The notes under the pieces are model-generated. The model did no database searches and had not been told where the DNA came from. It saw only the letters and a list, made by a program, of their open reading frames with translations. Below are positions 10,413 to 60,734 of a stretch of DNA of 64,000 bases, one piece after another; within the stretch, counting starts at the first letter, position 1; the number at the start of each line of letters is the position of its first letter. Source of the stretch: Massalongia carnosa (lineage: Eukaryota); NCBI GenBank assembly GCA_965645245.1, contig OZ287082.1, positions 868,001 through 932,000 on the forward strand, given 5' to 3'. Position numbers and translations under genes: made by a program.

Positions 10413-10742
10413 TCTTTAGAATCACCAGCGTCCAAAGGGTTCCAATTTTTCGATTTCAATCCTGAAATTAAATAGATAATTTTGTATTGCATACGTCTTC
10501 TGAATAGGATCCTGCGCCTGAACAATCCTCTCACCCTCTGTTAAGTAAGGTAATCTTTATCTTATCTTATGACTAGGTCTGATGCGGCTTCTACGGTTTC
10601 CTAGATGCTATGTTTATTTTACTGATAGGAATTGGATATTCAACAGATCTACATAAACTTATTACATATTATTTATTCTACAGACTGTAAAAGGCGATGT
10701 GGATTAGAATAATATTTGCAAGAAACGACTAATTAACGGAAA

Positions 10743-21100: not shown

Positions 21101-22117
21101 TGCTTTTCCAATCGTAGCTGCAAAGCTGTCGGGTCGAGTCCGCAGAAGAGTTTCGTATAGGTTTAATGCTTTTTGAACGTCTTCCGTTCGGTCCCAGACC
21201 CGGTGGCGTTCCATGTAGTGCTGAGCGTATTCGGCAAGCCACAGAGCATAGTTCGAATCAGTGTTGGCAGTCTGCCCCACGCTTCTGTTGTAGTAGTCCA
21301 GACAGTTTGCGGAATGATTTTCTTCGTGATTGATCTGGAATAGAGTGTGATGTGCAATGGCCGCGTTCCGCCAGATTGTTCCATATGGCATTGAAAGAAA
21401 CGGACGAAGCCGCTGGATCGCACGTTCGTGGTATTCCACCGCCTCTATCAACGAGCTGACCCGAAGAGTGTCCGACGGTAGTGTTGTCAAGCGAATAAAC
21501 TCTCCGAAGTTGGACAGCAGTTGCGCCTGTAGTGGATGATTCTCTGAGATATTGACTGCTCGAAGAAAATTGGATTTAGCCTCCAAGCGATCGTCTGAGC
21601 TTTTCGTTCGATTCCATCTTTGCTTTATGATGTAGCCTAGGTTGGTCACAAACGCACCTAACGCTGAGTGACTAGGCTCCGCGGCAGCGACGGCTCTACG
21701 AAAGAAGTGGACGGTAGTGTCGAGATCATCCGTCCTTCTCGTCTGCTCCCATTTAGCTTGACAGGCAAATGCCAGAGCACTCAACCGGTCCGGCCTATTA
21801 GAATCATCAGGCTTCGTGTACTTGACTGCTACCACGTATAATGCAATTGCTGCCTCGACTTCCTCGATTCTTCTGGTTGCTTTCCAACCCGCAACATGTT
21901 GGGCTGCACAGTGACTACACAGAATTGGACGGTCGGGGTGATCGCCAGCTTGCTGAACGGCACAGATCAATGATTGAGCGTTCCGGGGGAGACCTTCGAG
22001 CCAGCCATCTTTCTGGTAGAATTGACCGCTAAGTAAATCGTCGGAGAGCGTTTCGTCTTGCTTTAGCGTTCTTATTGCATGATCGAGCAGTGCTTGAGGG
22101 ATTCGATCCGAAGACAT
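18131..22117 (-). CDS. TPR-repeat + CHAT (caspase HetF associated with TPRs) cysteine protease, 1328 aa, intronless
   Basis: Repeated helical units (DLDTTVHFFRRAV, DLNRAIQTY, DLASAINLFRGSL); CHAT motifs WLW...P, RIYW..SG.LSLFPIHAAG, VISSYVPS, catalytic HFACHG and FLSACET, terminal WGAFVHMGP. Confidence 0.93.
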   Translation of the reverse strand: MSSDRIPQALLDHAIRTLKQDETLSDDLLSGQFYQKDGWLEGLPRNAQSLICAVQQAGDHPDRPILCSHCAAQHVAGWKATRRIEEVEAAIALYVVAVKYTKPDDSNRPDRLSALAFACQAKWEQTRRTDDLDTTVHFFRRAVAAAEPSHSALGAFVTNLGYIIKQRWNRTKSSDDRLEAKSNFLRAVNISENHPLQAQLLSNFGEFIRLTTLPSDTLRVSSLIEAVEYHERAIQRLRPFLSMPYGTIWRNAAIAHHTLFQINHEENHSANCLDYYNRSVGQTANTDSNYALWLAEYAQHYMERHRVWDRTEDVQKALNLYETLLRTRPDSFAATIGKADALRIIAGGEKDIAESRRIMSEACRLADSSVEMIKESSNSRGWAYYRTSAISSCRYDLDGERRYLDRAVDLSKLSLKYTEHEACWDFNRWCAQVCRSRHILDGSPGDLSQAFTAIYAAIDQLEEWDTANLASCIWVLGTCFTSQYNCSGDIQDLDQALNWLSAACIMPGNRHNLALTQNDLANALCIKFRQNSSVDDLNRAIQTYALSIKNLEKLSPEADHTDLAMLKNGMGHAMLERYLFWGSQEDLASAINLFRGSLSAADARSPRYAGRACNLSYSLILMFSLRPELRLLQDAQSYLVSVLNSPVGLGLNISQLVNCNLGSTYLRGYEITQNVADLDSALEHYEKVKNSSGADGRYRADVTMNIGVALHKKATRSGHFPDYIASVASFDEAVNHESLHDDHKTISRTNRAEVFNEIFEKFHDIDYGRRALKECSELASRKNARTDLLLRAANVASVLEVSVNSDYRKAYEQIRKAVNLLPQAMFMYSNRFEQLRLVRKYHYLPSSATALAMGASVPAAQIVLALEQSRAFIWNHFVLSATPLDTLRKAHPNLSSQFESLRSTLMSQTVSDSNSVIVGVLPAKDQIRLERHANADAYTRLLQTIRNENGFKDFLLPSIERNTTASSKDFPVVYLNISEYRCDALITSSQGAHAVALPKLRMADVVIQAQRMYEVQAGIMNDFLQACKSFEEVMLWLWTTTAKPILTYLEREHLFKHLRGKQRIYWISSGWLSLFPIHAAGDWKSSRSTQDCPSVHERVISSYVPSIGVLDFLRRRAEHLESKGNHDEALLVGMPQTPDMDETFNLDADVEVALIKSIIDKKIPVDDQLSPRLNEITSRLRTCEIAHFACHGVADHEDPSKSAIRLADWTDRPLNVRALMKMEIAHCRLVFLSACETAANKDLLLRDEGMHVAGGFNMAGVPHTISGMWKISDEASLELARAFYTELFGLDDHLRYQGTAEGLHASVDHLRDAGYHPVLWGAFVHMGP

Positions 22118-23412
22118 GCTGCAAGATCCATCTCCGTGCGTATCAAGAGATCTCGTGGGATAGGCAATGACGACGCGGCTATCGCCGTAGCCTCGTGCTC
22201 TAGTATTTGGCCTCTAGGCGCGACACCAGATGAGAGTTTCGTCGTTGCATCAAGTCCAACAAGCTATTATACCGCCCACTATACCGACAAAGAACGGACG
22301 AGCGACAGAAGAGTTGTGATGAGGCTGAACTTCGTCACAGGGTTGCGCTAGTCGCCAGGCTATTCCGAAACGGAATGGGCTTTCCCAAGAGCGCCTGCGA
22401 ATTCGAGAAGACTCCCCTCCCCCCAGCGAAAATCATTCCAAATTAGGACTAGCTACCAGCCACCTCTCCATACTAAATAATTAGGTGCATTCATTAATAA
22501 TATTACAGGTATAGGCAGCCAACTCTCTGTATAAATTTATCACTATGATAGGTAGACCGCCCTTCTTCTCTCCCTTATCTTTTTCTTTGCTATGACCCTC
22601 ACATCAACGTCCCTGTATGCACGTTTGCAAAGAACTATAGCGAGTTTACCGTCGTCTCATCGTCTTCCTCCGAATGAGAGTAAAATCTTTATCTCCTGAG
22701 AGGAGGGAAAACCCCGCCTTCAGAATTATGCCTTTACTCAAGGCTTTGCATTGATCACAGAGACTAATGATAAGAAGAATCATCTCGTTATACTAGATTG
22801 CACCCGTCGTCACAAAAGAGAAAGAAACACTAAAAAGCTAGAGGAGAAGGACCGCGTACGAAAAAACACGATGGTCTCGTTCAACGCGTGCAAATATCGA
22901 CTAAGTCTGAAGCAAAATAAAGACGAATCGTGAAGATTAATCATCACCAACCCTGATCACAATCACGAGATACTTCAAATCCCTTCAATTTCAAAGAGCA
23001 TCGTAGTCAAGACCTCGATCGAGCAAAGCAACTGTCCTAGATCAAGCAAAAAGTCTTCGTGATGCATCAACTAGATACGATCAAGCATCTCGCGTTTTGG
23101 GAATGACTGGCCTGCGCCTTTCGAAGAAGGATTATTACAATCTGGCTCGATCTCAAAGCAAACATACACCTGAAGAAGAATTGATCTATACACTTGGATT
23201 TGTAGAAGAAGAAGGATTTCATGTACGGGCTTTAGAGAAATATCTCGTTGAAAACAATAGAAGAGTTGCGGGGGCAACCGCCCAAAAGGGGCAACTGCCC
23301 AAAAAATGCCCCATCGTGAATAAATCATAGAAAATCAACCACTTCCGAAAACTCTCCATACGATTTTGCAGGTGAAAATTCGATCAATTTTCTATCAACA
23401 TTAGCTATCATC

Positions 23413-24980
23413 ATGGTTCGAAATTATAAGCCGAAACGTCCAAACCCCGAGTACTTTGACGACCCTGACGATATAGCTCCCCCACCAGACGTCGACTACG
23501 ACACTCGAATGGAACGTGCCCTAGAGATTTGGACCACTGGCCAAGCTTCTAATATGCCTATAAGTCTTCGTGAAGCAGCTAGGCTTCAAGGGGTGGTATG
23601 GGAGACTTTACGAGATCGAAAAAATGGTGCTATATCGAAAAAAGCAGCCAACCATGCCATGCAAAAGCTCACTCCGCTAGAGGAAGACGTTCTTGTCAGT
23701 TATATCGTCGTTCTAGCTAGCTGGGGATATCCACCCACCCATCAACAGCTCCTAAAGATGGCGTACGAGCTCCTTCAAGCGTAGGGCGACATGAACCCCC
23801 TAGGGCACACCTGGATCCAGCAGTTTATGGACCGTCACCCAAGCCTTAAGTCAAAAGTCATCAGTCCTATCGAAAAAGAGCGTACTCTAGCTACAGATCC
23901 CGCTACCATTCTACGCTACCTCGAGCTCTATAAGAATCCTGTGGAGCAGTACGATATTGACACCGAAAACCAATACAATATGGATGAGAAAGGAGTTGTA
24001 ATGGGGGTCATTGGCAAGACAAGGGTTATAATACCCAAAAAGGAGATATCTCGGTACATGACGGCTTGTGGGAATCGAGAGTGGGTGACTCTTATTGAAG
24101 CTATTGGGCTTAGTGAGAGGTCTCTTAAACCATGGGTTATTCAAGGGCAAACAACAGATGAAAGCTTGGTGGGACGCCTTTAAAACCGGCCATATATCAG
24201 TCTCGGAGAATGGTTGGACAGATAATGAGCTTTGTTTTGAGTGGTTAAAGCGGTGCTTTGAACCAGAGACTCGTCCAACGACTCCTAGCAAGTGGAGACT
24301 CCTTATATTCGACGGCCATGGGTCTCATCTTACAGGGAAAGCTATCGATTTTTGTTTAGAGCATAAGATTCTCTGTCTTTGCTTGCCAGCTCACATTACT
24401 CACCTCGTACAGCCTCTCGACGTCGGGGTATTTAGGCTTTTGGCTCACTACTACAAGACAGCGGTTCGAGAACAGGGTCGATTCAATATTACATATCAAA
24501 TATCAAAATTCGACTTCCTAGAGCTAATTCAAGAAGCTCGAGTAAAGGCAATTACACTAGAGAATGTCATTAAAGCGTGGCACGCTACTGGCCATATGCC
24601 CTACAACCCGTCTGTCGTCCCTCAACAAATACCCTCTTCGATACCAAGCTCTGAACCCTCAATTATGAGCTTATATTCATCCTCCTTTCAACCTCCCGCG
24701 ACGTCTACAAGTGGAAGCAGGCCAACAACTAGAGATTGGAACTGCTCTCGTACCCCTTTCAGCTGCTACTCCTGCTAATATCGTGGACGTCGACAAGCTT
24801 TTCGCCGGAGCAAAGCTAGCTAGCGTTCAAGTGGAGTTTGACTACTGGGAGCAAGTTGCCCTTAAGCTTGCTAAAGCATGTGGCCAGAAGATGGCTCTAA
24901 GTACGAATTCAAGGGCAAACTATTACGGAGCTCGTAGAGGCTGGAAAGCAAAAGAGGAAGAAGAAATGGAGAAGTCATGA
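23413..24980 (+). pseudogene. Fot1-like DDE transposase with a stop and frameshifts
   Basis: HTH region SLREAARLQGV..ETLRDR, KLTPLEE; NMDEKG, LIFDGHGSH, QPLDVGVF split over several ORFs. Confidence 0.88.
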
Positions 24981-26005
24981 GGCCTACGGAGAGGCCAAGG
25001 TTATGGACAAGGAGACGGCGGAGCGAATCGAGGCCGAAAAGCAGGAGAAACGACAGGCCAAGAAGGCCAAAGCTTGGGAGTCATGGAAGAAAGCGAACCA
25101 AAGTCAAGAGAATACTCTTTGGAAGCAGTTCCTCTCGTGGACGCCTCGACTATGTGGAGGGGAGGCTGTTACACTACCACCATCGCCAAAGAAGACCCAG
25201 GTTGGCACTCAAAACCACATAATCAACCCTAGCGCCAAGCTCTCCCTTAACCCTACCGATACGGAGACGTTTACGGCTCGAGAGCGCCTCGAAATTGAGT
25301 TCTCACCCACCAGAAAAACCCTAGGCAAGCCTCTAAGGCCAAGGAATCAACGAGAAAGGCAGGTTTTAGAGGGCAAAGGAGTACAGACAGGGCCGGTGGA
25401 CCCTCCGCAAGGTGGCCAAGGGGAAGCTCCAAAAGAACCACTCAAGAGTACGCGTGGCAGAGTTATTAAGGCCAGAGTTATATGGGAACCAAAGGGCAAT
25501 TAATAAGGCAATTGATGGTTGTGGGCGGTGGGTTTTTTCAAATTGTAATGCTAGTAGTACTTAGATTTCGCCTGTAGTTGTACCAAAAGCTTTGTACCTT
25601 TTCATCTCTATTTAAAACGGGGAATATCACTCGGGTTTAATACATCAAATAAGTGTGAGACTTTAAACCAACTTTAAGTCAAATTAGGAAGGAGCGAAGG
25701 TAGGTACATAAAGTGGCCATAAAGACGTCCACGGCGAACAAGTATTTCTGGATAAAAACATACCAAATTCTTTAGCAAAGCTCCCCAAAAGTACCTCCGC
25801 CACCGTTCAAAAGAGTGAATTGCATATGCCACTCAAAAGCTTCGATACGCCCTAAGCTTTTGAACCCTCCCCCTCCTGCCCGCCTTCTTGGCTGTCTCCT
25901 TCCGTAGTACTCCCTTCACTTGTTCCTTCGTCCTGGCACCACCAAAGGACGCTCCCTGTCCACCACTCTCTGCTTCCACGCTCTGACAAAAGAGAATCAC
26001 TTTTA

Positions 26006-29000
26006 CTTTGGATTGACAATAGCGACGGTCCACCTAGCCTTATCGGAGGCCGGCCTTACAATAGGCCGCCCCCCTGAATCCTAATGCGGTAAGGTGGTTA
26101 AGGAGGTGTTTGCTATAGCAAACAATCTGGTCAATAAGGTCCTCGGGAGGACACCCTCGCAATTTCCTTCTAGATAGCATTAATATAATCACCTTTCAAA
26201 GCCTTCAGTCTGCTACTAAGCCTCCTGTAATCAAAGGATTATGAGCCCGGCTAGACGCTAGGGAAGTGCTATATAATCTCTTCTCTTCCTACATATCTAG
26301 TCCTTTTTCCTTGTAGGCCAATTATCAAGCCTCAAAGAACCTCCTCAGCTGTCGGTGCTTAGGCTTCAACAATGGGACCAGAAACCTATCAGATAAAGCC
26401 GTTGATAGGTGAAAAGAACTACAATGTATGGAAGGAGGAGGTGAAAGGCCTCCTCAGTTTAGACGAACTGTGGGATATAGTTAAAGGGGAAGAACTCCGA
26501 CCCTTAATGCTCCGCCTCGACCAGTGGACTCCCCTTCTAAGATAGAGGATGGAGTCACCACCCCGGCCATAGTAGTGACACAAAGCACTATTGAGCGGTG
26601 GGAGGACAAACTGGAGGCCTTCGAGGACAAACAGAAGAAATGGGACAAGCGAAGGGTAAAAGCAGCTACCAAGATATACTTGAACTGTGGAACAGGCCCT
26701 CGAATCCATATAGAGGGCCTGGAAGACCCAAAAGAGATGTGGGATGTACTGGAAAAGCATTACAAAGCAACAAGTCTGGCCACTAGAGACCTGGCCTTCC
26801 TTCAACTTCGTGCTAGCCAATCAGATTTCAAATCCATTCAGGAGTACGCCGAACACCTAAAGAAGGCCCACTCCCAGTTGATACAACTCGGTCACAAGTT
26901 ACCAGACTGGGTTCTCTCTACCTCGTTCCGACTTGGTCTTAAACCGGACCTGGAACCTTATATCTTCAGTCTCGTAGAGACTGCAAGAGCAAACATGAGG
27001 GAGTTAGACGTTGACGAGATGATGATGGCCTTAATAGATCATGATAACCGCCAACAAAACTTAGAGAAATCCAACAAGGCACTGACGGCTAAGTTCAACA
27101 GGAAGGAAAAGAAAGAAGAAGATAAGAAGAGCAAAAAGGAGAAAAAGGAGAAAAATACCAATTCGTCAAAATGTGAATACTATGACGGTCCTGGCCACAA
27201 CAAGACCAATTGCTATTAGGAAACCGGCCCCATCTAAGGAAAACTTGATGAAGAATAAGAAGGAGGATAGGAAGGAGGATAAGGACAAGAAGGAATCTAA
27301 TCCCTCGTCCAAATCAGCCTTCGTTCCAAGATCAATGATAACCAAGAGCCTCTTTACTAACGTCCATAAGTCTCAAAATAGGGATCGTACCTGGTGGATA
27401 GACTCGGCTTCCGATGTCCATATTTGCTATGACAAAGACCTATTTGATGACTATCAATCAATTAGAGGGAAGGTCATAAAAACGGCCAACTCCACTGACA
27501 TGATTATTAAAGGAAAAGGATCTGTTACCCTGTATCTAGACGTGGATGGTGAATCAAAGGCTGTATGCCTAAAGGATGTCCATCACGTACCCGAGTCAGC
27601 ATACAATCTGTTTTCTGTAGGTGTTATTGAGTCGAAAGGATTCGAATTTCGAGTAGGAAAAGGAAGAACTGAATGTTTTGCCCCTGACGGAGAACTCTGT
27701 CTTACTGGTACTCGTCAGTCTTCTGGATCCACACACTCGATCGACCTGGACCAATCAAAGACCTTAAATACCTCTTACAAATCCTCTGACAATGTCTCGT
27801 GGACGGTGGGGCACCGACGATTAGCCCATCTCAACATGAAGGACGTCAAGATTTTAGCTAAACTCTCCACTGGCATTGATGCAATTAAGGCTGATAAATG
27901 TGAATCAGCAGAACCTAAAATCAACGTGTGTCCATCATGTGCAATAGGAAAACAACATCGAAATCCAGTTAGAATTCAACGACTAAAGGCCACCAACATC
28001 GGTGAAATCGTACATACCGACATTGCTGGCGGGGGGGACTTACCTCAGACAATTGGGGGAGCCAAGTATGCTGCCTCCTTCGTTGATGGTTTTACTGACT
28101 GGACGGTGATTTACCTTCTGAAGAAAAAATCCGAATTAAAGGAGGTCCTAAAGGACTATTTAGCATGGATGAAGACACAAGGACACCCGGTCAAACTTAT
28201 GCGCAGTGACAACGGAGGGGAGTATGCTGCCATCAGACCTTACAAATTTTGAAGGACAATGGCATCGAGTGGGATGCGACAGCACCACACAATCCGAATC
28301 AGAATGGGGTAGTCGAGAGGTGCTTTCGCACCCTCTTCGAGCGAACCCGTGCGATTCTTAGTGACAGTGGAATGCCTTCTAATCAATGGGGGGAGGCTAT
28401 TTCCTACGTTACTTACCTGAAAAACAGGAGTCCAAGGCATGGTGATAAAACACCCTTCGAACTGATGTATGGCAGACAGCCAGACTTGTCGGGTGCTCGT
28501 ATCTTCGGGTGCGTAGCATACTCTTACAATGTTGACCCTCAGAAGAAGAAGCTGGACGACAGAAGCATCAAATGCAGATTTCTTGGCCTTCAAGACAACA
28601 ACAAGTATCGCCTTTGGGACCTCACCTCCAAGAAACTCATCATTTCGGCACACGTGCTATAGGACGAGACCGCATCCCTTTCGGTTGAAGAATTGGGGGA
28701 TGGTGGCGACGACTATGGCTTCTTACAATTCTTCTACCGAAATGGTGACGACGAGGTGGACACATCAGGGGTGATAATTTATGCAAATGAAGAGGAGGAA
28801 CTCGTTGATGAGGAACCAACTAAACGGCCTTTAGAACCGGAATTTGCAGATGAAGGAACCGGGAGAGAGGACGATGATAAATCAGAAAGTTCGGAAAATT
28901 CCGAGGACTCACAAGTAGCCGACCTGACCTCTGGGTCATCAACTGCTCCTTTTACGGGCCAATTTACTAGTAATTCCGAGCAGTCGATCAAATCCGCACC

Positions 29001-31035
29001 AGGACAGGTACCTCAGGAACCTAGACCACCACCTCCACCAACATCATCATCCCGACCATCCCGACCATCCCGAAACACCTCTCGACCCGATTATGCTAAA
29101 TTAGCTGATCCATGGTCTAAGAAAGGAGGTAACAAGGGATTCGCATTGAGAGCTCTTAAGGCCTCCTTGAACGACCTCACCGTCCCCAGCACCTACAAGG
29201 AGGCCATTCAGTCTTCAGAGGCTACCGAATGGATCTGAGCATCAGAGGAGGAGGTTGAATCTCATTCCATCAACGGGACCTGGGACCTGGAAATTCCACC
29301 ACCTGGTAGGAAGATCCTCCCTGGTGGATGGGTTTATACCACCAAACTCGGTCCGGATGGGGAAATATCTCGATATAAGGCCCGATGGGTAGGTAAAGGT
29401 TTTTGCCAGATAGAAGGCATTGACTATAATCAAACCTATGCCAGCGTGGTCAAATCAATGACATGGAAGGCCCTGCTAGCTATAGCGGCTAGATATGACC
29501 TGGAGGGCGAACAGATCGACGTGGTCACCGCTTTCCTTGAGGCCCCTCTAAAAGAGGAGGTCTGGATGGAACAACCCCATAGGTTTGTCAAACCAGGGGG
29601 ATTGCTTGTCACTCAAAGAAGGCCATGTATGGTCTCAAGCAGGCCCCCGTAAATGGTATTCCACCCTCACTGACTATCTTATCACCATGGGCTATAGGAG
29701 AATAAACGAGGACCATTCGGTCTATATTCATCAACAAAATGGCATCATAATAGCGATTTATGTGGATGATCTACTTCTCATCGGACCCTCTCTTTCGGAC
29801 ATCAGTCTCTTGAAGACAGAATTGTCTCACCGATTCCGGATCAAGGATCTCGGACCAATTAATTTCTATTTAGGGATGCACGTCACTCGGGACCGGCCAA
29901 ATAGAAGAATATATGTTCATCAATCGGCGTACATTAGGCGGGTCATCGATACAGTCGACATGTCCGATTGCAAATCCGTCAAAACACCCATGGAGACCAA
30001 TCTTCTTCTGGTCAAGAATTACTATAAAGGCAAGATATACGAGGCCACAAATAGAGAGATCAAGGCATATCAAATGCTTATTGGATCTCTATTGTGGTTA
30101 GTATGTATGTCTCGGCCGGATATTGCTTACTCGGTGAATCGCTGCAGTAGATACTCAATCAATCCTACCCCCTATCAAGGCGCAATTTTAAAAAGAATCA
30201 TTCGACATTTGGCTGGAACAAGGGACCTAGGCCTATGTTTTGGATCCTCCTATGAGGGTATTCACACCGATTTAATCGGTTATACTGATGCCTCTTATGG
30301 AGACTGTCTGGACACTAGGAGATCCACTTCCGCCTATGTCTTCCTCCTGAACAGCGGACCAATCAGCTGGTCAACGAAACGCCAGGCCTCGGTGGCCACC
30401 TCCACAGCTGAGGCTGAGTATATGGGGGAGTGCCATGCTGGCAAGGAGGCTGTCTTCTTGGCGAATGCCTTGAAATCCTTGGGATATGGTGTCAATGACC
30501 CCGTCCCTCTGAAAGCTGACAATAAGGCGGCTATAAAGCTAGCCGACAACCCCATCAATCATCCTCGGGCCAAACACATCGATATCCAGTATCATAAGAC
30601 GAGGGAGCTGATCGCTGAGGGAGCTATTCAAATTAGCTATGTGCCCACTAAGGATATGATAGCTGATGGACTAACCAAGCCTCTACCGTGGATCTCCTTT
30701 CGAAGGTTCATCGATCAGATGAATATGACCACTGCCTCTGAGGCATCAAATCAATGAGGTTGATTCAAACTTCTGGAGATTGGAACCTTCCTATTGTGAG
30801 GGAGCTTTGGATTGACAGTAGCGACAGTCCACCTAGCCTTATCGGAGGCCGGCCTTACAATAGGCCGCCCCCCTGAATCCTAATGCAGTAAGGTGGATAA
30901 GGAGGTGTTTGCTATAGCAAACAATCTGGTCAATAAGGTCCTCGGGAGGACCCCCTCGAACTTTCCTTCTAGATAGCATTAATTTAATCACCTTTCAAAG
31001 CCTTCAGTCTGCTACTAAGCCTCCTGTAATCAAAG
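26006..31035 (+). mobile_element. Ty1/copia element B, decayed, inserted in the Fot1 element
   Basis: 231-bp LTRs at 26006-26236 and 30805-31035 (about 8 substitutions by eye); PBS GATTATGAGCCC at 26237-26248; PPT GTGAGGGAG. Confidence 0.92.
26372..30757 (+). pseudogene. Copia B gag-pol with several frameshifts and stops
   Basis: WWIDSASDVH (protease), HRRLAHLN, RSDNGGEY and QNGVVER (integrase), YVDDLLL (RT), GYTDASY and KHIDIQYH (RNase H). Confidence 0.9.
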
Positions 31036-31611
31036 CTTTATAATCCACTTCGCACCAAATATCCACTCCAGCCCGCATCCAAGAGTCGATTTTTGGGCTG
31101 TCCCGAACCAAAATCCACCCAAAATGGCTTGTAGAATTGACCTCGCATAGAGAGATACTGGTTCTATGGCGTGAAGAGGTAGGTTCGCGATATTTGAGGA
31201 TGTATTGGTGGTTGAGTGCAAAACAAACCGAATCGGGGATATCGAATGGGACGACTTCTAGATTTTTAGCACTCGCCAGAGCTGAAAAAGGGATATACTA
31301 ACAGATAATCTCTGCTCTCCCAGAGCGTACGCTTCGATCCATTGCTTTTATAACGATTTATATGGTGTGGTTGTTGAATAAATTATGAAAAAGGAGCAAT
31401 GGGGCACTTTTTGGGCGGTTGCCCCCGCAACTCTTCTACTCCCCGAAGACGTGTTGTTGAAAATTTCTTTTTCTTTAACGCTGAACAGATCCGACTGACT
31501 AGACGATTCGTCATTGAATTTTTGATTGAAACGGATGCTACGTTCAATACAAATCAGTTGGACTTACCTCTATCGATGTGAATTGACATCATCAACACTA
31601 ATCAGACTTTC

Positions 31612-33350: not shown

Positions 33351-34089
33351 AAGGGCCAACTCACTCCTATTTCCAGGAGTATTTTACTAGCTATTATCAA
33401 CGTCAGAAGTGTTAGTTTGTGTTGAATGTTCAACTTCTACCAGCATTGCCTAGCCGATAGATTAGATAAGATCAGATCTAATCTAATCGCATAGAGGCTC
33501 GGATAAACTATTATCATCTCGCTTAGCAGAGGTGACCAATATAAAGGGAACAGATTGCTCTGCACTCCGTAGCAACTCTGCATCCTTAACATCATGGTCA
33601 TACAGGCCCCTATCTTTACATAGTCATATAGCCATAGTCATAGACCTATTCAACAGGTTATGAGCCCGGAAGGGCGCTATTGATCATACAGGAATCAAAG
33701 CAATTCTTATCCGCAGCATCACGATGCAAAATCATTAGCTGAGCATCATTATCCTTTCTCGAAAAGAACTAGACGGACAATGCAAAGACTAAATCTCTAC
33801 TTGTTTACAAACCTGAATCAGGCGGGATTCGCACCCGCAAGTCTAGCTAGTTGAACAGCTTCGTGAAAGCACATCATGACAACCTCTCAATCAGATAGAG
33901 ACGTTTAACAACAACGCCACCTGATCCAGCGTTCCCTACCTACAAAGGGTTATCAGAAAGAGCATGGAAATCGTCTACATCATAAGCAGAGAGGCTCTTT
34001 GCCAGACTACAAGCATCAGAAGACATTCTCTTCATATCAGACCATCAGAATGCTCTCATGCCCGAATATCTGAGAGGCACTCCGGAGGA

Positions 34090-34800
34090 TGACGTTGACC
34101 CAGAGGCAGACTCCAGTGGACCAATTCCATTGTTTGACCTCTGCTGCATCACTATCATTTGACTTTTGACCCAGAGGCAGACTCCAGTGGACTAGCTCCA
34201 AGGTTTGACCTCTGCTGCATCATCACTCATTTGACATTAACCCAGAGACAGACTCCAGTGGACCAGTTCCAATGAGTGACCTCTGCTGCATCATCATTCA
34301 TTTGACTTTGACCCAGAGACAGAACTCCAGCGGACCAGTTCCAACGATTGACCTCTGCTGCATCATCATTCATTTGACTTTGACCCAGAGACAGAACTCC
34401 AGTGGACCAGTTCCAACGATTGACCTCTGCTGCATCATCATTCATTTGACTTTGACCCAGGAACAGACCTTTTCACTGAGTTTTGTTCAAAAACCGCGCA
34501 GCGCGGCCTTGACCACTTATGAAACTCTGATTTCTGCTGAATCATCAATTGACTGACGTTGACCCAAGGGCAGACTTCATTCTGACTTTTGCTACATCAC
34601 CACTCAACTTACTTTGACCCAGAGACCGACCATCTAAACTATTTTTCAGGGTCCGATTTCTGCTGAATCATCAAATGACTGACGTTGACCCAAGGGCAGA
34701 CTTCATTCTGACTTTTGCTGCATCAGCACTCAACATACTTTGATCCAGAGACAGACTTAGGAAATTCAGTTCCAAGGTTTGATCCTTGCTGCATCATTCA
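34090..34800. repeat. Tandem repeats in the copia C leader: about 5.5 copies of 71-72 bp, then 2 of about 125 bp
   Basis: ACCCAGAG..AGA.CTCCAGTGGACCA...GACCTCTGCTGCATCA recurs near 34098, 34169, 34240, 34311, 34383 and 34455. Confidence 0.9.
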
Positions 34801-35239
34801 TTAACAGACTTTCTGACTAGTCTACGCGTATACAGATGGAGTAATCAGACTTCAATTAAGCAGAACGCCTCAATCGGGAAATTCAATCCGGAAAAAACCT
34901 TATTCCATTTAACAGGCCCGGCCTATTAAATGGAACGGTCGGACCGTGGTTCCGACAGCCCCCTATCTCCATATCACCAAGTGAAAGTTTCACCATCTGA
35001 AGAGAGTTCTTTCATGAGGGTACAAGCGTTGTGGCAAAGAAAGGAACATCACAGTTTGATGACAAAGGAAGGGAAATGTTTTGTCTATAACTAGATCACA
35101 TATTCCCATCTCCTCCATTCATTCCAGTGCACATCCTACTCCTGCACCAATCTCAGAAACTTAGATACCTTTCAATCTACAAAAGTTTACTAGAGACCTC
35201 TTCTTCATCTTCATCTGACTCTCTTCATCTGACTTCATC

Positions 35240-36175
35240 ATGTCTCTTCCTGAAATCAACAGTTCCACAGAGAAGCCTCACCTTCTAGAGAACTCGGAAC
35301 ACTACTCAGCATGGGCTAGTTACACCAGAGGTATTCTGCTGAAGAATAAGTGTGACACAGCCATTCTGGAAACCCAACCAGAGATCTCATTGGACTCCAT
35401 CAGAGAGAGCCTCATCGTATCAGGGTTTACTCCGGCCAGTCTTACTACCAGCATCCTCGTCAAAGAACTTCGGGATGATAAGAACAGACAGAAAACCGAG
35501 ATGACCAAGGCTATTAGAATCATCCATGGACTAGTTGCACCATGTCACTACAACCTCATCAATAACAAGACCGCTGCCGAGATGTGGGCCATTCTGAAGA
35601 ATAGATTCCAGGACGTGGCACCAATGAGCATCACGGATGTCATCTTGAGGGTTAGTACGAAAAAGATGAGAGACTTCGACACAGTCAGTCAATACTGTTC
35701 AGAGTATGACGGTGCCTTCAATCAGATCAAGGGCATGTTGATCGAAGAGGTCAAGGTGAACGTCGACTCCATAGAGTTTGTACTTCAGGGAATGCTGCTT
35801 GGTAACTGCACAGACAAGTATGACCCGCTCATTGCACAACTCCGCAGGGACTGGACGCACGACACCACAAACCTTTCGGAAACAACAAAAATCCTCATAG
35901 CCTATGCACGAAACCTAACTGTCAAGGCTTTTCACACTGGCGCTTCCAACAGAGGTAGAGCACCTATCGGAAGTTGCACCGTTCCAGAGTGTGTAAATAG
36001 GAACAGAACACGACATTGGCCAGATGATTGTTTCCAGAAATTCCCCCATCTAAAACGGGCGAGAGGAGACACGGCTGAATCAGGGAGGGTCAAGAGACAA
36101 AAGAACTCCAATCCAGAAGTCACCACGTCAACTCCAGACACCACAGTCACTACAACTCCCACAGTGAGCAGTTGA
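35240..36175 (+). CDS. gag: Copia C Gag
   Basis: TAAEMWAILKNRF; Cys/His knuckle CTVPEC..H.PDDC. Confidence 0.9.
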   Translation: MSLPEINSSTEKPHLLENSEHYSAWASYTRGILLKNKCDTAILETQPEISLDSIRESLIVSGFTPASLTTSILVKELRDDKNRQKTEMTKAIRIIHGLVAPCHYNLINNKTAAEMWAILKNRFQDVAPMSITDVILRVSTKKMRDFDTVSQYCSEYDGAFNQIKGMLIEEVKVNVDSIEFVLQGMLLGNCTDKYDPLIAQLRRDWTHDTTNLSETTKILIAYARNLTVKAFHTGASNRGRAPIGSCTVPECVNRNRTRHWPDDCFQKFPHLKRARGDTAESGRVKRQKNSNPEVTTSTPDTTVTTTPTVSS

Positions 36176-39100
36176 CTCACAGTGGTCATGACTACCACTC
36201 TACAGAAGGTCATGACCATCAATCATCTCAACAGAGACACCTGGCTACTAGACAGCGCAGCGGACATGCACGTATGCAATCACAGGCCGTCGTTCATCAA
36301 CTACATAACACGCTCCACAGGTCTGGCAGGATCTACATCAGATGGCACGTCTCCAGGGAGGGGAATGAGCCGGAAAACGTTGGCACTACAGGACGACTCA
36401 CCCTCGTCAGTGTTAATACTGAACAATGTTCTTTTCATTCCACAGTGTCCAGTGAACCTCGTCAGTCTGGCACTACTCAACCAAAACAACATCTACTATG
36501 ACAATGTTAACTGGACCCTATTCAACGGGATTAGTCAGAACATCATAGGCTATGTGCCAAGAGTCAATACAAACTTTGTACTAAAGACCTTGGACGCCCC
36601 AGACGTGGCTACACATCTTATGCAGACAGATGAGAGCACCTTTCAGTGGCCGAACACATCAGTCTACCACACGTCAGCCATAACAGACCTGTCAACATGG
36701 CATGCGCGTCTTGGTCATTTAAACCTGATCACCTGCCGAGCTTTTCTGAAAAGACTCGATGTGTCGTACTCAGACAACGTGAACAAAGATTGGTACTGTT
36801 CATCCTGTGAACTCGGAAAGGCCACTAAGATGTACAACCGGACACCTCAGGAGAGAGCAACAGGCATCTTTCAAAGGGTTCATTCCGATCTAGTAGGACC
36901 CATCAAACCAGCAGGACTTCTTGAAGAACAGTACTTCTTTACCTTCACCTGCGATGCCAGCAGATACACTCATGTGTATACAGGCATCAAGAAGAGCGAA
37001 TGGTTTGATCATCTGTTGACATACTACAGTCTAGCTCAGAACAAGACAGGAAAGAGCAAGCCAATAAACATCTTTCGAACTGATTTCGGCACAGAACTTC
37101 GAAGTCTGAAATCGGATGATTGGTTCTTGAAAGAAGGGATAACGTTTGAACCCTCCGCACCGTATTCACAGGAACAAAACGGTGTGTCTGAACGAACAGG
37201 CAGAACTATCATGGACATGACTAGATGTACCATCATTGCAGGAGGCATTCCGGACTACCTATGGACAGAGGTGGTTTTAGCTATGGTTCACACAAAAAAC
37301 GTCAGACCTACAAATGCTTTATCCGGAAAGACCCCATTTGAAATTTACGAGTCAAAGTCACCTCCTCTGAATCATCTGCGAGTGTTGGGATCAACCGTGT
37401 ATGTCCTCATTCATGAGGAAGAACGCAAAGGCGCCAACAGCAAATCGGCCAAATTTCTACCTCGGGCCCAACGCGGAGTCTTGTGTGGGTACGATGGATG
37501 CACGATCTATCGAGTCTTTCTGGAAAAGGACTACAGGGTCATCAGGGTCAAAGATCTGCGCATTCACGAAGACGCCATCTCCAAAGACCAGACCAACGTT
37601 CCTACATACGAAGCCATCATGACTCCCGATATAGTCACTCCATCAAAATCAACAGTCATTTCATCCCCCACAACGATTCCAAAACGTGGACGTGGCAGAC
37701 CCAGAAAGCATGCTCAGATAGAACACGCATTGTCTCTTCTATCAGACACAGCTTTAGATGAACTCAATCATACTCCTACATACTCCTACATAGACACAGA
37801 GGATCCACTCGTTCTTCTTGCCAGAACCTTGGAGAAGGAAGGATCATCAGGATTGGAAGACTATGACGCACTGTCTCAACTCGACATAGCTGAACCTCAG
37901 ACATACCATCAAGCTATGAAAGGTCCACATTCAGAAAGCTGGAGTCGTTCCATGGACAATGAACACAACAGTCTTCTCGAGAACGAAACATGGACTCTTG
38001 TCAGAACCGAGGATATGGAGCCCAATCATACTGCTCTCAGTGGAAAATGGGTATACAAACTGAAACGAGACGTCAATGGAAATATCACACGGTACAAATC
38101 CAGATGGGTGGTGAAAGGCTATCTCCAGCAGTACGGAGTAGATTTCGAACAGACCTATGCCTCCGTAGTGAAACCAATGGCCTTCCGATTATTGTTTACC
38201 ATAGCAGCTCATCATGACTTGGACATCGAACAGCTTGATATCGTCACAGCATTCTTGTATGGGGTAATAGATCAATTGATTTACGTCCAAATGCCCAAAG
38301 GATATGAAAAAGCGGGCATGATCTGCAAACTGAACAAGGCTCTCTATGGCCTGAAACAATCTCCACGCCTATGGTATGAAAGGCTATCCGAATTTCTACT
38401 TACCAAGCTGGGTCTGTCCAAACTTCACGCAGATCATAGTATCTTCTCTTCTTCGGCAGGAATAAGAGGTCCAATTGTTACCTCCTTCGTTGATGATCTG
38501 AACATCATAGGTCCAAAGGGATCTCCAATGATATCTAAAGTCAAGAAACAACTGAACATTGCGTTCAAGATGGTGGAAATGGGCTCAATCAGTCATTATC
38601 TAGGCCTAAAGGTAGAACGAAATCGCGATAACAGAACAATCAAACTATCTCAATCTACCTACATCGAAAAGGTCCTGGAGAAGTTTCATATGCAGAACGC
38701 GAAAACTACCACCACCCCAATGAAAGAAGGCAGTCTATTCAGAAATGAATCCCAGGCCTCAGAATCAGACATTAAACAGTATCAAGCAATCGTCGGCTCC
38801 ATCATGTTTGCTATGATAGAAACAAGGCCTGACATTGCCTACGCGACCTCAGTGGTCAGCCGACATGCCAAAAATCCTGGCAAATCACACATGGAGGCAG
38901 CCAAGCAGATTCTCAGATATCTCAGTGCAACCAGAGACAGAGGCATTACCTTTGGTGGCGGAGATTTGTCTATACAGGGCTATTCCGATTCTGATTGGGC
39001 CGGTGACAAGGAAGACCGCAAGTCCACCTCCGGATACGTCTTCATGCTGAACAATGGACCAATCAGTTGGGCCTCAAAAAGACAGAAAACCGTTGCCCTC

Positions 39101-39478
39101 TCATCCACAGAAGCCGAATATATGGCACTCACCTTAGCTGCTAAAAAGACCATATGGATACGCTTATTGATGACAGAACTCGGCCTGATGCAGGATGATG
39201 CTACTCCGACAGTGAATGTACTTGAAAGGGAAGGCGCTATAGCATTGAAAGGTGATAATCAGAGTGCTATAGCACTGGCCAATAATCCCGTCTTACATTC
39301 AAGGACTAAGCACATCGACATTCAGCATCACTTCATACGGAATGAGGTCACAGAGGGTCGAATAGACCTTACCTATGTTTCAACAGAACACATGGTAGCG
39401 GACGGACTGACCAAACCGCTTACCCACGTCAAATTCTTCTCCTTCATCAGACAACTTCACATGAATTCATCTAGTTGA
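36176..39478 (+). CDS. pol: Copia C Pol (PR-IN-RT-RH), in frame with gag after a single TGA
   Basis: WLLDSAAD, WHARLGH, RTDFGTE, QNGVSER, KALYGLKQSPR, FVDDL, YSDSDWAG, KHIDIQHH. Confidence 0.95.
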   Translation, partial: LTVVMTTTLQKVMTINHLNRDTWLLDSAADMHVCNHRPSFINYITRSTGLAGSTSDGTSPGRGMSRKTLALQDDSPSSVLILNNVLFIPQCPVNLVSLALLNQNNIYYDNVNWTLFNGISQNIIGYVPRVNTNFVLKTLDAPDVATHLMQTDESTFQWPNTSVYHTSAITDLSTWHARLGHLNLITCRAFLKRLDVSYSDNVNKDWYCSSCELGKATKMYNRTPQERATGIFQRVHSDLVGPIKPAGLLEEQYFFTFTCDASRYTHVYTGIKKSEWFDHLLTYYSLAQNKTGKSKPINIFRTDFGTELRSLKSDDWFLKEGITFEPSAPYSQEQNGVSERTGRTIMDMTRCTIIAGGIPDYLWTEVVLAMVHTKNVRPTNALSGKTPFEIYESKSPPLNHLRVLGSTVYVLIHEEERKGANSKSAKFLPRAQRGVLCGYDGCTIYRVFLEKDYRVIRVKDLRIHEDAISKDQTNVPTYEAIMTPDIVTPSKSTVISSPTTIPKRGRGRPRKHAQIEHALSLLSDTALDELNHTPTYSYIDTEDPLVLLARTLEKEGSSGLEDYDALSQLDIAEPQTYHQAMKGPHSESWSRSMDNEHNSLLENETWTLVRTEDMEPNHTALSGKWVYKLKRDVNGNITRYKSRWVVKGYLQQYGVDFEQTYASVVKPMAFRLLFTIAAHHDLDIEQLDIVTAFLYGVIDQLIYVQMPKGYEKAGMICKLNKALYGLKQSPRLWYERLSEFLLTKLGLSKLHADHSIFSSSAGIRGPIVTSFVDDLNIIGPKGSPMISKVKKQLNIAFKMVEMGSISHYLGLKVERNRDNRTIKLSQSTYIEKVLEKFHMQNAKTTTTPMKEGSLFRNESQASESDIKQYQAIVGSIMFAMIETRPDIAYATSVVSRHAKNPGKSHMEAAKQILRYLSATRDRGITFGGGDLSIQGYSDSDWAGDKEDRKSTSGYVFMLNNGPISWASKRQKTVALSSTEAEYMALTLAAKKTIWIRLLMTELGLMQDDATPTVNVLEREGAIALKGDNQSAIALANNPVLHSRTKHIDIQHHFIRNEVTEGRIDLTYVSTEHMVADGLTKPLTHVKFFSFIRQLHMNSSS

Positions 39479-41683
39479 GTTCATACCGCGCAGCGCGGTT
39501 TTGATCATCAGAACAAGTACTGGCAGAACTTGAGGGAGGGTGTTGAATGTTCAACTTCTACCAGCATTGCCTAGCCGATAGATTAGATAAGATCAGATCT
39601 AATCTAATCGCATAGAGGCTCGGATAAACTATTATCATCTCGCTTAGCAGAGGTGACCAATATAAAGGGAACAGATTGCTCTGCACTCCGTAGCAACTCT
39701 GCATCATTAACATCATGGTCATACAGCCCCTATCTTTACATAGTCATATAGCCATAGTCATAGACCTATTCAACAGTTTGTTTCCGCATACATCCAAAAG
39801 TTCCCTAATTTAGGTGCACATAGTACACAAAGGGTGGAAGGTTTGCATTCGTTGATAAAGAATGTGACAAATAGGCATACATCTATTAAGGATTCGATGC
39901 GGAGAATATGCGAAACAGTACAAAGGATTCAGATTGATTACGAAATATCAATCAATCATCAACGAATCAACAACTCTCGATCAATGAATAGAAGAGCGCT
40001 CAAAGACCTTATAGGTTTAATAACTCATCATGCTATTGATCTCATATTTAGAGAGTTGAATGTAGCTGAACTTTTAACCGAAAATTTCAATCAATAGGTT
40101 TCTTTTGAAGTTGAAGAGACTGCATTAATCGAATCAATCGATGAGAATTGTATGTATGATTACGATCTTTCGTGCAGATGATGATTGTATCGTTGCGTCA
40201 TTGATGTTATCCTCATACTTATTTTCCTCATTCATCCCCGCTGATTTTTCGATGACCCGCCTTTTGTGATCTCGTGGAGAATGGTTTTCGATCTCACCAT
40301 AAATTTCGCTGAGATGTTTCGAAGAGCAGCTCACAGGAAGACCACAGAAGAGCAGAATGAAAAGGCGGATGAGGGGGGGAATGCTCAACAAACACAAGAA
40401 TCTGAGCCGGAAGAGGAGATCGAGAAGGCCGTTGACAATAATACTAAGGATAGATTTCGTCGCGGGGGTGTTGATTTGCTGCATGCGGTCGCACATCAAT
40501 CTATTGATTTTCATAAATCAATAGAAAATGTGCATAGAAGGGAAGGATACACTCGTGAACTCGTCAAATTCACTGCTATTTTCAATAAAAATGGCAGGAT
40601 AAGGAGCTGGCGAGGCCACTTATCCCTACAACTTTCCCCGACGAAATCCGACCGAAGGACAACCTCATGTATAAAAAGAGTGAGAGTCGCCAGCGGGCTT
40701 ACACTGGCCGTGAGGCAGCTGAGGTAGATGAAGCTAAGCAGCGACGTGCTAAACGTAAGGACTCGATTGAAGAAGGGAGGAGAAGAAGGCATGAGAATGA
40801 ATTGCGGGCAGGCGGTGAAGACAAGGGTATGATTGATGATAAAAAACCTACGATATCAGCAAATCGATCGATGTAGCGCGGCTAATATTCGATATAGATT
40901 CCGGAGATGCTATCATCGAATCTGACGATGATGACCTGCAATATATAGCAACTCAGCCTATCCTCAATCCTCCACTCTCTCTGAATGAGAATGATGATTT
41001 TATCCCTTCATCCCCGACATCTTCTTCCGATTCATTTGAATATATTGATGAATTACTGACGAAACATAGTCAATAGGCTCTTTTTTAAACGGTTCCCTCT
41101 TCAAAGCTCCTTCCCTTTATAAGTTAGCCTCAGTCAAAAAAACATCCGCGCTAGCTAGCTATTATCCACATCGTCTGCAATAACAATACGAGGGTTACGG
41201 GTGTGATAGCCAAAAAATCGAAGGCTCAGTTGGAGTTGGAGTCTTAGCAGAGGGTCGATCAAGCGGCCAAACAAGCAAGGGCTGAGGAGAGGAAAAACGC
41301 AGCTGCAAGAAAGGTTGCTAAGACTATGAAGCCTAAAAAGGATGATGTTTCGCAATTGAATGATGCATTTTCGGAATTGAGATCATCGCAATGAGTGATA
41401 GGAGTAGTAGTAATAGTAGTAGTATGAATAGATGAGGATTTTTCAGAATGCGGGACTAAGCTAAATCAGCTAGAGGAAGCTTGCGAAGAGACGGTGGACG
41501 TGCACATATTTAGTATGAGGAGGTGGCTTGTAGCTAGTCCTAATTTGCAATGATTTTCGCTGGGGGGACGGTGAGGGGGACTGTCCCGAATCTTCTCGCT
41601 GCGAATTCATACACTTAATGTCCTCGACTGACGGTCGTTCATAATCCCTCACCTTTCGACGTGCGTGGAGTTATTCCTTGATT

Positions 41684-42843
41684 ATGCTTCCTAGCTCCAG
41701 TATGAAGGAGACTTCATTGCCCCATCGCTATGCGAAATCGCTCGCCAACCACGGATACGGACATGCGTTGTACGAACCAATATCCGTCCAAGATCTCCAG
41801 CCCGGGAGCTGTGGATACCTCAACGGCGAAGGCGCATGGAATCCCGTCGTCCGACTGGACCAGACCGACGAGCTTCGCAAGTATGGTCTCGGGGTGTGCA
41901 ATCTGCAGAAAGCGCCGCAAAGCACGAGGAGCTGGGGGCCGAAAGTCTCCTCTACAGTCACGCAAACCAAGCTCGACTTCAAGGCTGACGCATCGTGAGT
42001 TCTCGTCTTCCTGGTCTGGGTGATCGTGATCGTCCTTGCCCCGCATGAATGGTGACCAAAATGCTAGGCTCCTACCAGCGGGAATACCAGTCGATATTGG
42101 CGCGTTGTTCCAATACGAAGTGAGTCACGACGAAGGGACCATACTCCTGACTTCATCGCCAGTCATCAAAGAATCGCTGTATCACGAAGAGCCATTCAAG
42201 CAATGGGTGAAACACAATGCTCGCATCATCGCCACCGTGTGGCCTGACGTTTTGACACACGGGCTCTACATCGTGACATCCACGCATTCTACGGCCGAGG
42301 CGCGCATGAACATCTTGCGGAGCAACACCCACCGAGTCGCTGTGGGCTTCAACGTCGGGTTTACGCCCGTCGGGGAGATCGCGCCGACGGGCACGTGGTA
42401 CACCGCGTCTGCCGATAGCGGCTGGATCACGGTCAAAGCGGACAAGGTTCGCACATGCCACCACGATGGCTGATCGCTGTTCACGGTGATTGACACGTCG
42501 ATTGACACGTCGGTTAGGCTGGAGACGACAAAGTGGTTTTCTTTGGAGGGCTATACTTCCGATGGCCTTGGGGCGGACTGGCCACGGTGAGCGACGAGTA
42601 TCATACCGAGTCGACTCCCATCTGACGTGCCTGTCACAGGCTCACATCAAGACGGTCCCGTTCATGAAATGGAGAGGCGCGAGTGAAGACGCGCGATCGA
42701 TCACGATTGCGAAAGCGGATCACGCCACTGACACCGAAGATCCCTACGCGGGTTCATTCGACATTGAATGCGTCGCTCTCGGAACCGTGGAACATCGACT
42801 CGCGGAAGAGCCCGCTGCCAGTGACGATGCAGATGATTTCTGA
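41684..42843 (+). CDS. Gasdermin-like pore-forming protein (putative), 320 aa, four exons: 41684-41994, 42068-42446, 42518-42586, 42640-42843
   Basis: Three GT-AG introns give one open frame of 963 nt. Motifs GHALYEP, PGSCGYL, a beta-hairpin-like alternating segment (TKLDFKADAS..GIPVDIGALFQYEV), FKQWV..N, GLYIVTS, a second hairpin (VAVGFNVG), DKVVFFGG, then a 55-aa acidic tail. Alternative ATG at 41702. Exon model is well supported; family call is by motif resemblance only. Confidence 0.62.
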
Positions 42844-52957: not shown

Positions 52958-53421
52958 AAAACTTCTTATATATCAGCGAGAATAATCAATATGTACATAA
53001 TCAAAATCAATTGCGAATCTGTTGTATTTATCGATACTTTCTCGAAGATTTTCTCTTTAAATTTCAATGCAATCAACTGTATGTTTAATTTAAAAGAAAA
53101 TAAAATGAATTATATTTATTCACATTCGAATTCCTTATAATCGATTTTGAAAAATCGAACTTTCATTCAAATATAGATTAACTCAACTTGTTGCGCGATT
53201 CCTTTGTGAAATCCAGAACACGACAAATGAAAAATCTCAAAGTTATTCGTATGACATGAGAATACTATTTAAAAACTTGTCGTTGAGAACACGACACGAC
53301 ATGATAAAATTGACTTCTTCTTATCGTGTTTTTACATTCATCCCCTGCATCACGATCTTTGCGATTTGGGAACACGTTGTTTTAGCCCGAGGAGTCGTGG
53401 TGTTCCCGTTTCACATGACGA

Positions 53422-60672: not shown

Positions 60673-60734
60673 ATTGATTTAGTTTGAAATTGATATGATA
60701 ATCAGATAACATAATCCCCAAGAGATATACAATA

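Follow-up and report, generated by a model that had tools for sequence, protein, structure and literature searches.

We analysed a window of 64,000 nucleotides (nt) from Massalongia carnosa (assembly GCA_965645245.1, contig OZ287082.1, positions 868,001 to 932,000 of the forward strand); the window is this whole stretch of DNA, and all coordinates are counted from its first letter. It is fungal and rich in transposons, with reverse transcriptases of the Ty3, copia and LINE types and pogo-type transposases. Our subject is a four-exon gene on the plus strand, which encodes a gasdermin-like protein of 320 amino acids (aa) with a candidate protease site and an acidic C-terminal tail, together with a divergently oriented gene upstream of it encoding a CHAT protease, its candidate activator. 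The features of these two genes are listed below; P0001 (Aspergillus taichungensis) and P0343 (Monilinia fructicola) are relatives of the gasdermin-like protein.

41684..41994 (+), exon 1; residues 1-103 and two bases of codon 104
41995..42067 (+), intron 1; 73 nt, GTGAGT..AG, with no gap at the junction in the alignments with P0001 and P0343
42068..42446 (+), exon 2; 126 codons, the region of a helix and the LYIVTS strand, weakly similar to bacterial gasdermins
42447..42517 (+), intron 2; 71 nt, GTTCGC..AG with an atypical donor, again with no gap at the junction in the alignments with P0001 and P0343
42518..42586 (+), exon 3; 23 codons, the VVFFGG strand
42587..42639 (+), intron 3; 53 nt, GTGAGC..AG
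42640..42843 (+), exon 4; linker with KWRG, then the acidic tail and the stop codon TGA
42667..42678 (+), codons of K263-W264-R265-G266, the candidate protease site; the proposed cut is after R265 (codon 42673-42675)
42676..42840 (+), acidic tail, a candidate inhibitory peptide; 55 aa with 15 Asp or Glu (D/E) and 3 Lys or Arg (K/R)
18131..22117 (-), CHAT protease gene, the candidate activator; intact and intronless, 1328 aa, with a helical N-terminal region of ~1030 aa and a C-terminal CHAT domain
18137..19015 (-), CHAT domain (Pfam CHAT PF12770, E 1.3e-32), the last 290 residues of the protein

The pieces of the gasdermin-like gene lie in three reading frames. An earlier account of this locus, made from the letters of the DNA and their open reading frames (the sequence-only reading), had claimed that they splice into a clean frame of 320 aa, and joining the four exons by their coordinates through three GT..AG introns does give an open coding sequence of 963 nt (320 codons followed by TGA) with no internal stop. 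The segments which that account had singled out are likewise all present: YGHALYEP at residues 25-32, GSCGY at 41-45, LYIVTS at 170-175, VVFFGG at 236-241, and then KWRG and the 55-aa tail with its 15 D/E. The donors of introns 1-3 are GTGAGT, GTTCGC and GTGAGC, and CTRAY-like branch sites can be read in the sequence. The junction at intron 2 is supported despite its unusual GTTCGC donor, because the homology of P0002 (a fragment of an open reading frame (ORF) from another assembly, 74% identical over exon 2) ends there: this fragment turns non-homologous exactly at the start of the intron. The model is colinear across all three junctions with P0001 (118 of 274 residues identical, E 1e-75) and with P0343 (135/307 identical, E 1e-90); among the C-terminal blocks of the family, VVFFGG is conserved best. 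Judged by its sequence, the gene is not a chance frame. Its true start may be at 41702 (Met7), since Met1 of P0343 is aligned with Met7 in our model and the consensus of the family reads M-x8-Y; the protein would then have 314 aa and all residue numbers would be shifted by 6.

The fold was approached through AlphaFold models of two relatives, made with family alignments: P0001, which is 43% identical to the window protein (predicted local distance difference test score (pLDDT) 83.5, predicted template modelling score (pTM) 0.82), and P0147 from Fusarium oxysporum, which is 33% identical to P0001 (pLDDT 88.4, pTM 0.86). In an exhaustive comparison with 48,161 PDB representatives, each model gave 11 chains with Z>=5, every one of them a gasdermin, and gasdermins occupied ranks 1-11 and ranks 1-13, respectively. 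The top match was 8sl0 both times (Z 10.4 at 3.6 A and Z 10.8 at 3.9 A, in either case over 170 aa), chains of MACPF proteins and cytolysins came next after the gasdermins in this comparison with Z <5, and by rank 50 the score had fallen to Z 2.3-2.5. The chains of RCD-1, a gasdermin of Neurospora crassa, scored Z 5.7-6.8 in this comparison, and Z 5.6-7.4 when the realignment of Foldseek's matches is included. A Foldseek search of the PDB pointed the same way: each of the 15 matches in its list as far as rank 17 is a gasdermin, whether of bacteria, animals, Trichoplax or Neurospora (E 1.5e-3 to 6.6e-2), and realignment of Foldseek's list agreed with the exhaustive comparison. In the models of both relatives LYIVTS and VVFFGG lie on predicted beta strands.

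Sequence profiles of the family led to the same proteins. The matches with E<1 in the PDB were bacterial gasdermins only, at equivalent positions (E 0.034-0.66); those to 9v2s, 7n52 and 7n50 fall at positions equivalent to exon 2. A second profile search returned three matches at E<=10, all of them bacterial gasdermins (E 0.041-0.15), and in neither case was there a sequence match to the RCD-1 chains at E<=10. In PADLOC the bacterial gasdermin (bGSDM) family was the sole family matched (3 of 70 members, best E 0.029), and the leads from the protein atlas were all gasdermin families. Since these individually weak signals agree and no competing family appears, we regard a gasdermin fold, as predicted by the models, as a firm reading for the family. 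The sequence-only reading had been prepared to yield to a best match with a fold that does not form pores; the best structural matches are pore-forming gasdermins.

The candidate cleavage site was examined by aligning the window model with 70 relatives, and these 71 sequences, with lengths of 265-360 aa, were reduced to 48 at 80% identity. At the columns of W264-R265, a hydrophobic or aromatic residue followed by Arg is present in 31 of the 48 non-redundant sequences; the region is missing in 7, and the other 10 have other residues there, some of them probably misaligned. In the full set of 48, the Arg position is followed by Gly in 19 sequences, by Asp in 9, by Ser in 4 and by Ala and Thr in 2 each. 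A site that lacked conservation would have counted against the sequence-only reading; what is found is a conserved hydrophobic-Arg pair, usually followed by Gly. Beyond the motif, the 31 carriers (30 relatives and the window model) have a tail of 22-58 aa with 7-23 D/E and 0-5 K/R. In both structural models the motif is placed in a loop between the last long strand of the core and a C-terminal hairpin. This loop is predicted with low confidence (pLDDT <50 at residues 257-271 of P0001; in P0147, where the loop spans 241-253, the mean of the block is 67).

A comparable arrangement has been described for the bGSDM of Runella, in which, according to the available part of the source, a CHAT protease cuts a loop directly before the C-terminal peptide, after Leu247, and a Leu-Gly pair is needed. 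Because the layout in the family models matches this cleavage loop, the predicted position of the candidate site is well supported. Arg as the P1 residue is plausible by analogy, since separase cleaves after Arg, and metacaspases and paracaspases after Arg or Lys. The specificity of metacaspases and paracaspases is given in the accessible portion of a preprint on Runella bGSDM. Our literature search returned no description of a fungal pair of CHAT protease and gasdermin with a cleavage motif of the Arg type.

The putative protease has a catalytic His/Cys dyad: the His codon (18545-18547, in HFACHG) and the Cys codon (18413-18415, in LSACE) are both found on the minus strand, and the residues concerned (His1191 and Cys1235 counted from Met, which are His1223 and Cys1267 in the numbering of the ORF) are invariant in 20/20 aligned homologues. 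The protein is 98% identical to P0179, a database protein of 1328 aa. No Pfam repeat was matched at E<=0.01 in the first 1060 residues of the CHAT ORF; for homologues at a greater distance, TPR families are among the precomputed domains.

The CHAT and gasdermin-like genes are divergent, with 19.6 kilobases (kb) between their start codons. Three transposons account for ~13.5 kb of this gap (LTR, long terminal repeat):

23320..25503 (+), degenerate DNA transposon of the pogo/Tc5 type; DDE_1 E 4.9e-20, HTH_Tnp_Tc5 E 0.0098
26006..31046 (+), copia-type LTR retrotransposon 1; 242-nt LTRs 95% identical, with matches to Gag, Pol_BBD, rve and RVT_2
33419..39730 (+), copia-type LTR retrotransposon 2; 191-nt LTRs 99% identical, with Gag and a pol ORF of 1100 aa

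Nothing else recognisable as a host gene was found in the 19.6-kb gap, and the CHAT gene is the first gene upstream that does not belong to a transposon. Before the insertions took place, the two genes probably lay only a few kilobases apart as divergent neighbours. As a detail of the second copia element, its 5' part contains five tandem units of 71-72 nt and two units of 126 nt (34090-34467 and 34526-34777).

One indirect sign comes from a second assembly. The fragment closest to exon 2, P0002, and the CHAT homologue P0187 (47% identical) are each recorded on an ENA contig of 36,662 nt, and this pair was the sole match in length when 10 exon-2-like fragments were compared with the 14 closest CHAT homologues. 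This suggests that P0002 and P0187 lie on the same contig, i.e. that the two kinds of gene are linked there as well. When P0299 and P0314 were used as queries against metagenome contigs, no relative was found. Of six accessions flanking three members of the gasdermin-like family, none is among the HET-Q2-like proteins listed in the census of fungal gasdermins by Clave et al. 2022 (PMC8851545). As a whole, the interpretation offered by the sequence-only reading is partly supported: it has held for the gasdermin fold, the conserved site and the separate subfamily, and a cut after Arg, an inhibitory tail and a toxic N-terminal fragment are proposals. The CHAT gene is not adjacent and lies 19.6 kb away across transposons.

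Taking these data together, we consider it reasonably probable that the locus encodes a gasdermin-fold protein which is activated by proteolysis, with its CHAT neighbour as the candidate activator, and which serves in regulated cell death of the fungus. The 314-320-aa protein would execute this death in a filamentous fungus. Its residues up to ~262 would form the pore-forming domain, followed by a flexible linker carrying W264-R265-G266, and the 55-aa acidic tail (predicted to form a beta hairpin in relatives) would keep the protein inactive. The 1328-aa CHAT protease would use its long and helical N-terminal part to sense a trigger and would then cut the linker, most simply after R265. The N-terminal domain released in this way would oligomerise and perforate membranes. 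The cleavage, the choice of P1 residue, inhibition by the tail, the formation of pores and the existence of a biological trigger are all steps that we infer.

Several known systems are instructive for comparison. In the census mentioned above, as far as its accessible text goes, 19% of 1,884 fungal gasdermins are encoded near CHAT genes, and the gasdermin Q1-6 of Podospora anserina (Pa_6_6615, ~35 kDa) is processed by its TPR-CHAT neighbour Q2L-6 (PMC8851545). The pair described here resembles Q1-6/Q2L-6, as far as the latter is documented in that text, in consisting of a ~35-kDa fungal gasdermin-type protein and a protease which has a long N-terminus of repeats or helices and ends in a CHAT domain. 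It differs in that its genes are 19.6 kb apart across transposons, and in that 0/15 accessions of the family are in the het-Q1 list. HET-Q1/HET-Q2 of P. anserina share with it a hydrophobic or aromatic P1 region (L237-F238); the protease of that system is, by contrast, a subtilisin (S8), the cut is made after Phe238, and the inhibitory peptide has 38-43 aa in the available description, in comparison with 55 aa here. At census level, no similarity in sequence between HET-Q1 and the family was detected.

Bacterial gasdermins (Runella zeae and Vitiosangium bGSDM; 7n52, 7n51, 8sl0 and 9a84) are the best structural matches of the family and, at a marginal level, its only matches in sequence. Those working with CHAT or caspase-like proteases have a cleavage loop before a short C-terminal peptide, and in Runella Gly occupies P1', as it would here. 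The gene analysed here differs from them in being eukaryotic with three introns and in having Arg instead of Leu as its candidate P1 residue, and the tail of its product is longer, acidic and predicted to be structured. Moreover, the window protein has no Cys before residue 43 (in GSCGY), so that the palmitoylated N-terminal Cys reported for bGSDMs in the accessible sources is missing. RCD-1 of N. crassa (8jyx, 8jyy and 8jyz) has the fungal gasdermin fold, as do the family models; unlike the family, it is, in the portion of the literature available, a bare pore-forming domain which is activated without cleavage and has neither the tail nor the motif.

As for the family itself, a search of 1.84 billion proteins with no more than exon 2 gave 241 cluster representatives at E<=1e-3. 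The named members come from Aspergillus, Penicillium, Fusarium, Metarhizium, Alternaria, Monilinia, Camillea, Stipitochalara, Knufia and Claussenomyces, and, among basidiomycetes, from Gymnopilus; the core motifs are kept across the Ascomycota and this member of the Basidiomycota. All named members are annotated as hypothetical. The available Dataset S1 of the het-Q1 census (1,884 homologues; PMC8851545) contains none of 15 GenBank accessions checked for the family, and 5 of the 15 come from four strains within its scope (F. verticillioides 7600, A. alternata Z7, M. robertsii ARSEF 23 and M. guizhouense ARSEF 977). Five RefSeq XP numbers are likewise missing from this dataset, which uses GenBank numbers. 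The sequence-only reading had suggested, from the unusual N-terminus, that the protein marks a separate subfamily, and this view gains support from the lack of a Pfam match, of a sequence match to RCD-1 (E<=10) and of a census entry (0/15).

The family therefore appears not to have been catalogued, being missing from both Pfam and the het-Q1 census. Six locus tags of its members gave no occurrence in the searchable literature. Johnson et al. reportedly list 52 fungal gasdermins. Unannotated gasdermin-like structural clusters in the AlphaFold database are described in the accessible part of Barrio-Hernandez et al. 2023 (PMC10584675). The family could already be contained in those clusters or in that list.

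A number of observations on individual members may be added. For P0032 (Penicillium argentinense) the database gives a precomputed Pfam accession, PF27522.1, and no such match was obtained in our own Pfam scan. P0165/P0166 and P0173 of Fusarium fujikuroi have consecutive locus tags (FFB20_05643/FFB20_05644) and consecutive accessions (QGI68467/QGI68468), which suggests a tandem duplication. The Fusarium models P0174 and P0177 begin with an N-terminal F-box (E 3.9e-4 and 2.3e-3). No domain was matched in a Pfam scan of the extra-long members P0158, P0135 and P0145; P0158, from Gymnopilus, has 735 aa and no recognisable extra domain. In addition, basidiomycete WD40-repeat proteins of 801 aa (a cluster in the atlas) align structurally over 245 residues (TM-score 0.58 by query). 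These F-box, Gymnopilus and WD40 joined models may represent fusions to sensor or adaptor domains or, alternatively, annotation errors. Family proteins of only ~235-250 aa might be taken for natural forms lacking the tail. To judge from P0009, whose end is non-homologous, and from P0002, which continues through the position of intron 2, the short proteins are more likely gene models truncated at small 3' exons.

Some of our results weigh against a CHAT-activated gasdermin at this locus. The distance of 19.6 kb lies beyond the 10-kb criterion which the census applied to protease genes (S8 or CHAT), and linkage outside the window comes from a single match between contigs of 36,662 nt. The structural models are of two relatives, and the window protein itself was not folded. 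At E<=0.001 Foldseek found nothing in the PDB, its TM-scores being 0.2-0.42. The models are closer to the open, pore-state protomer of bacterial gasdermins (8sl0 and 9a84; Z 10.4-10.8) than to the resting state (7n50, 7n51 and 7n52; Z 4.6-6.4), and the structural alignments run on into the C-terminal hairpin which follows the motif. Pfam gave no match for the four exons (E<=1), for P0001 (E<=10) or for 42 full-length members (E<=0.1), where the Gasdermin (PF04598) and Bact_GSDM (PF26164) models are assumed to be present in the copy scanned. Finally, the sole CHAT protease that we found with a mapped gasdermin site, that of Runella, cuts after Leu247 and not after Arg, as stated in the part of the source available.

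These points have to be set against three other explanations. The protein might be a genuine gasdermin-fold death protein beside which the CHAT gene lies by coincidence, another protease being encoded elsewhere or cleavage being dispensable, as for RCD-1 and the Trichoplax gasdermin. The 19.6 kb between the genes would fit this explanation, as would the 20% of census gasdermins which, in the accessible text, have no protease neighbour (PMC8851545), and the activity without cleavage described, in the sources available, for fungal gasdermins of the RCD-1 type. It is difficult, however, to account without processing for a conserved hydrophobic-Arg-Gly in an exposed loop just ahead of a conserved acidic tail. 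Furthermore, if the transposons are left aside, no recognisable host gene upstream is nearer than the CHAT gene, and P0002 and P0187 are linked by the coincidence of their 36,662-nt contigs. We therefore hold a coincidental neighbour to be unlikely, although it is the most serious of the three competing explanations.

The remaining two concern the protein itself. A gasdermin-like fold need not form pores, because fold alone says nothing of function, and in a locus crowded with transposons the gene could have some other role or be a decaying copy. A frame that is open over four exons with valid splice sites, conservation over the full length, and core motifs kept across the Ascomycota and a member of the Basidiomycota argue against this, and we judge it improbable. 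Least credible of all, and in our estimation very improbable, is a protein with no kinship to gasdermins, whether another beta-rich pore-former (MACPF/CDC-like) or an unrelated fold which confuses the aligners. Chains of MACPF proteins and cholesterol-dependent cytolysins do reach Z 4-5.4, and the sequence matches to gasdermins are marginal (E 0.03-0.7). Nevertheless, gasdermins outrank those chains in two independent models with a top Z twice theirs, the marginal sequence matches are exclusively to gasdermins, and the atlas leads are all gasdermin families. Activation of a gasdermin-fold protein by cleavage, with the CHAT protease as its candidate agent, is thus the explanation that we prefer. 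It is also possible, though we advance this more tentatively, that the locus represents a widespread fungal family missed by standard resources, nearer to bacterial gasdermins than to RCD-1 (by structure and by marginal sequence matches), with Arg-specific cutting by CHAT proteases and an acidic beta-hairpin lock of ~50 aa.

The surroundings of the two genes deserve a few remarks. About 1.1 kb downstream of the gasdermin-like gene there is another gene (43945-46438, +), whose 195 N-terminal aa resemble the SesA/PigL_N domain (protein-atlas score 0.97, a lead) with no Pfam match for that part. This domain is found at the N-termini of fungal NLR-like proteins. In the same gene the SesA/PigL_N-like part is followed by a weak TPR match and then by ankyrin repeats (Ank_2 E 3.9e-22). 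The CHAT, gasdermin-like and SesA/PigL_N-like genes together look like a small island of genes of the cell-death or immunity type. Elsewhere in the window, two LINE-like retrotransposons are arranged head-to-head (5431-10289, -, and 10737-15778, +), each with a zinc-knuckle ORF1 and an ORF2 for endonuclease and reverse transcriptase. The region 53100-60700 has a GC content of 0.58-0.59, many long overlapping frames on both strands and a fragment of an animal-type haem peroxidase (56993-57628, E 4.5e-8), and it probably holds a multi-exon gene.

To conclude, gasdermins that are cut by linked proteases are now regarded as an ancient cell-death module common to bacteria, fungi and animals. The kind of system proposed here, a protease-activated gasdermin, is already known; the family appears to be new to the catalogues that we checked. 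If the motif were not a cut site, the locus would be that of a routine divergent gasdermin homologue. If our preferred explanation is true, more pyroptosis-like systems would be counted in fungi, a testable cleavage motif would be available for a fungal CHAT protease, and there would be a further link between bacterial and eukaryotic gasdermins. The fungal picture has so far consisted of one sequence family, the relatives of HET-Q1/RCD-1, and the locus described here points to a second; should the reading of a novel family be correct, fungi would hold at least two deeply separated gasdermin lineages.

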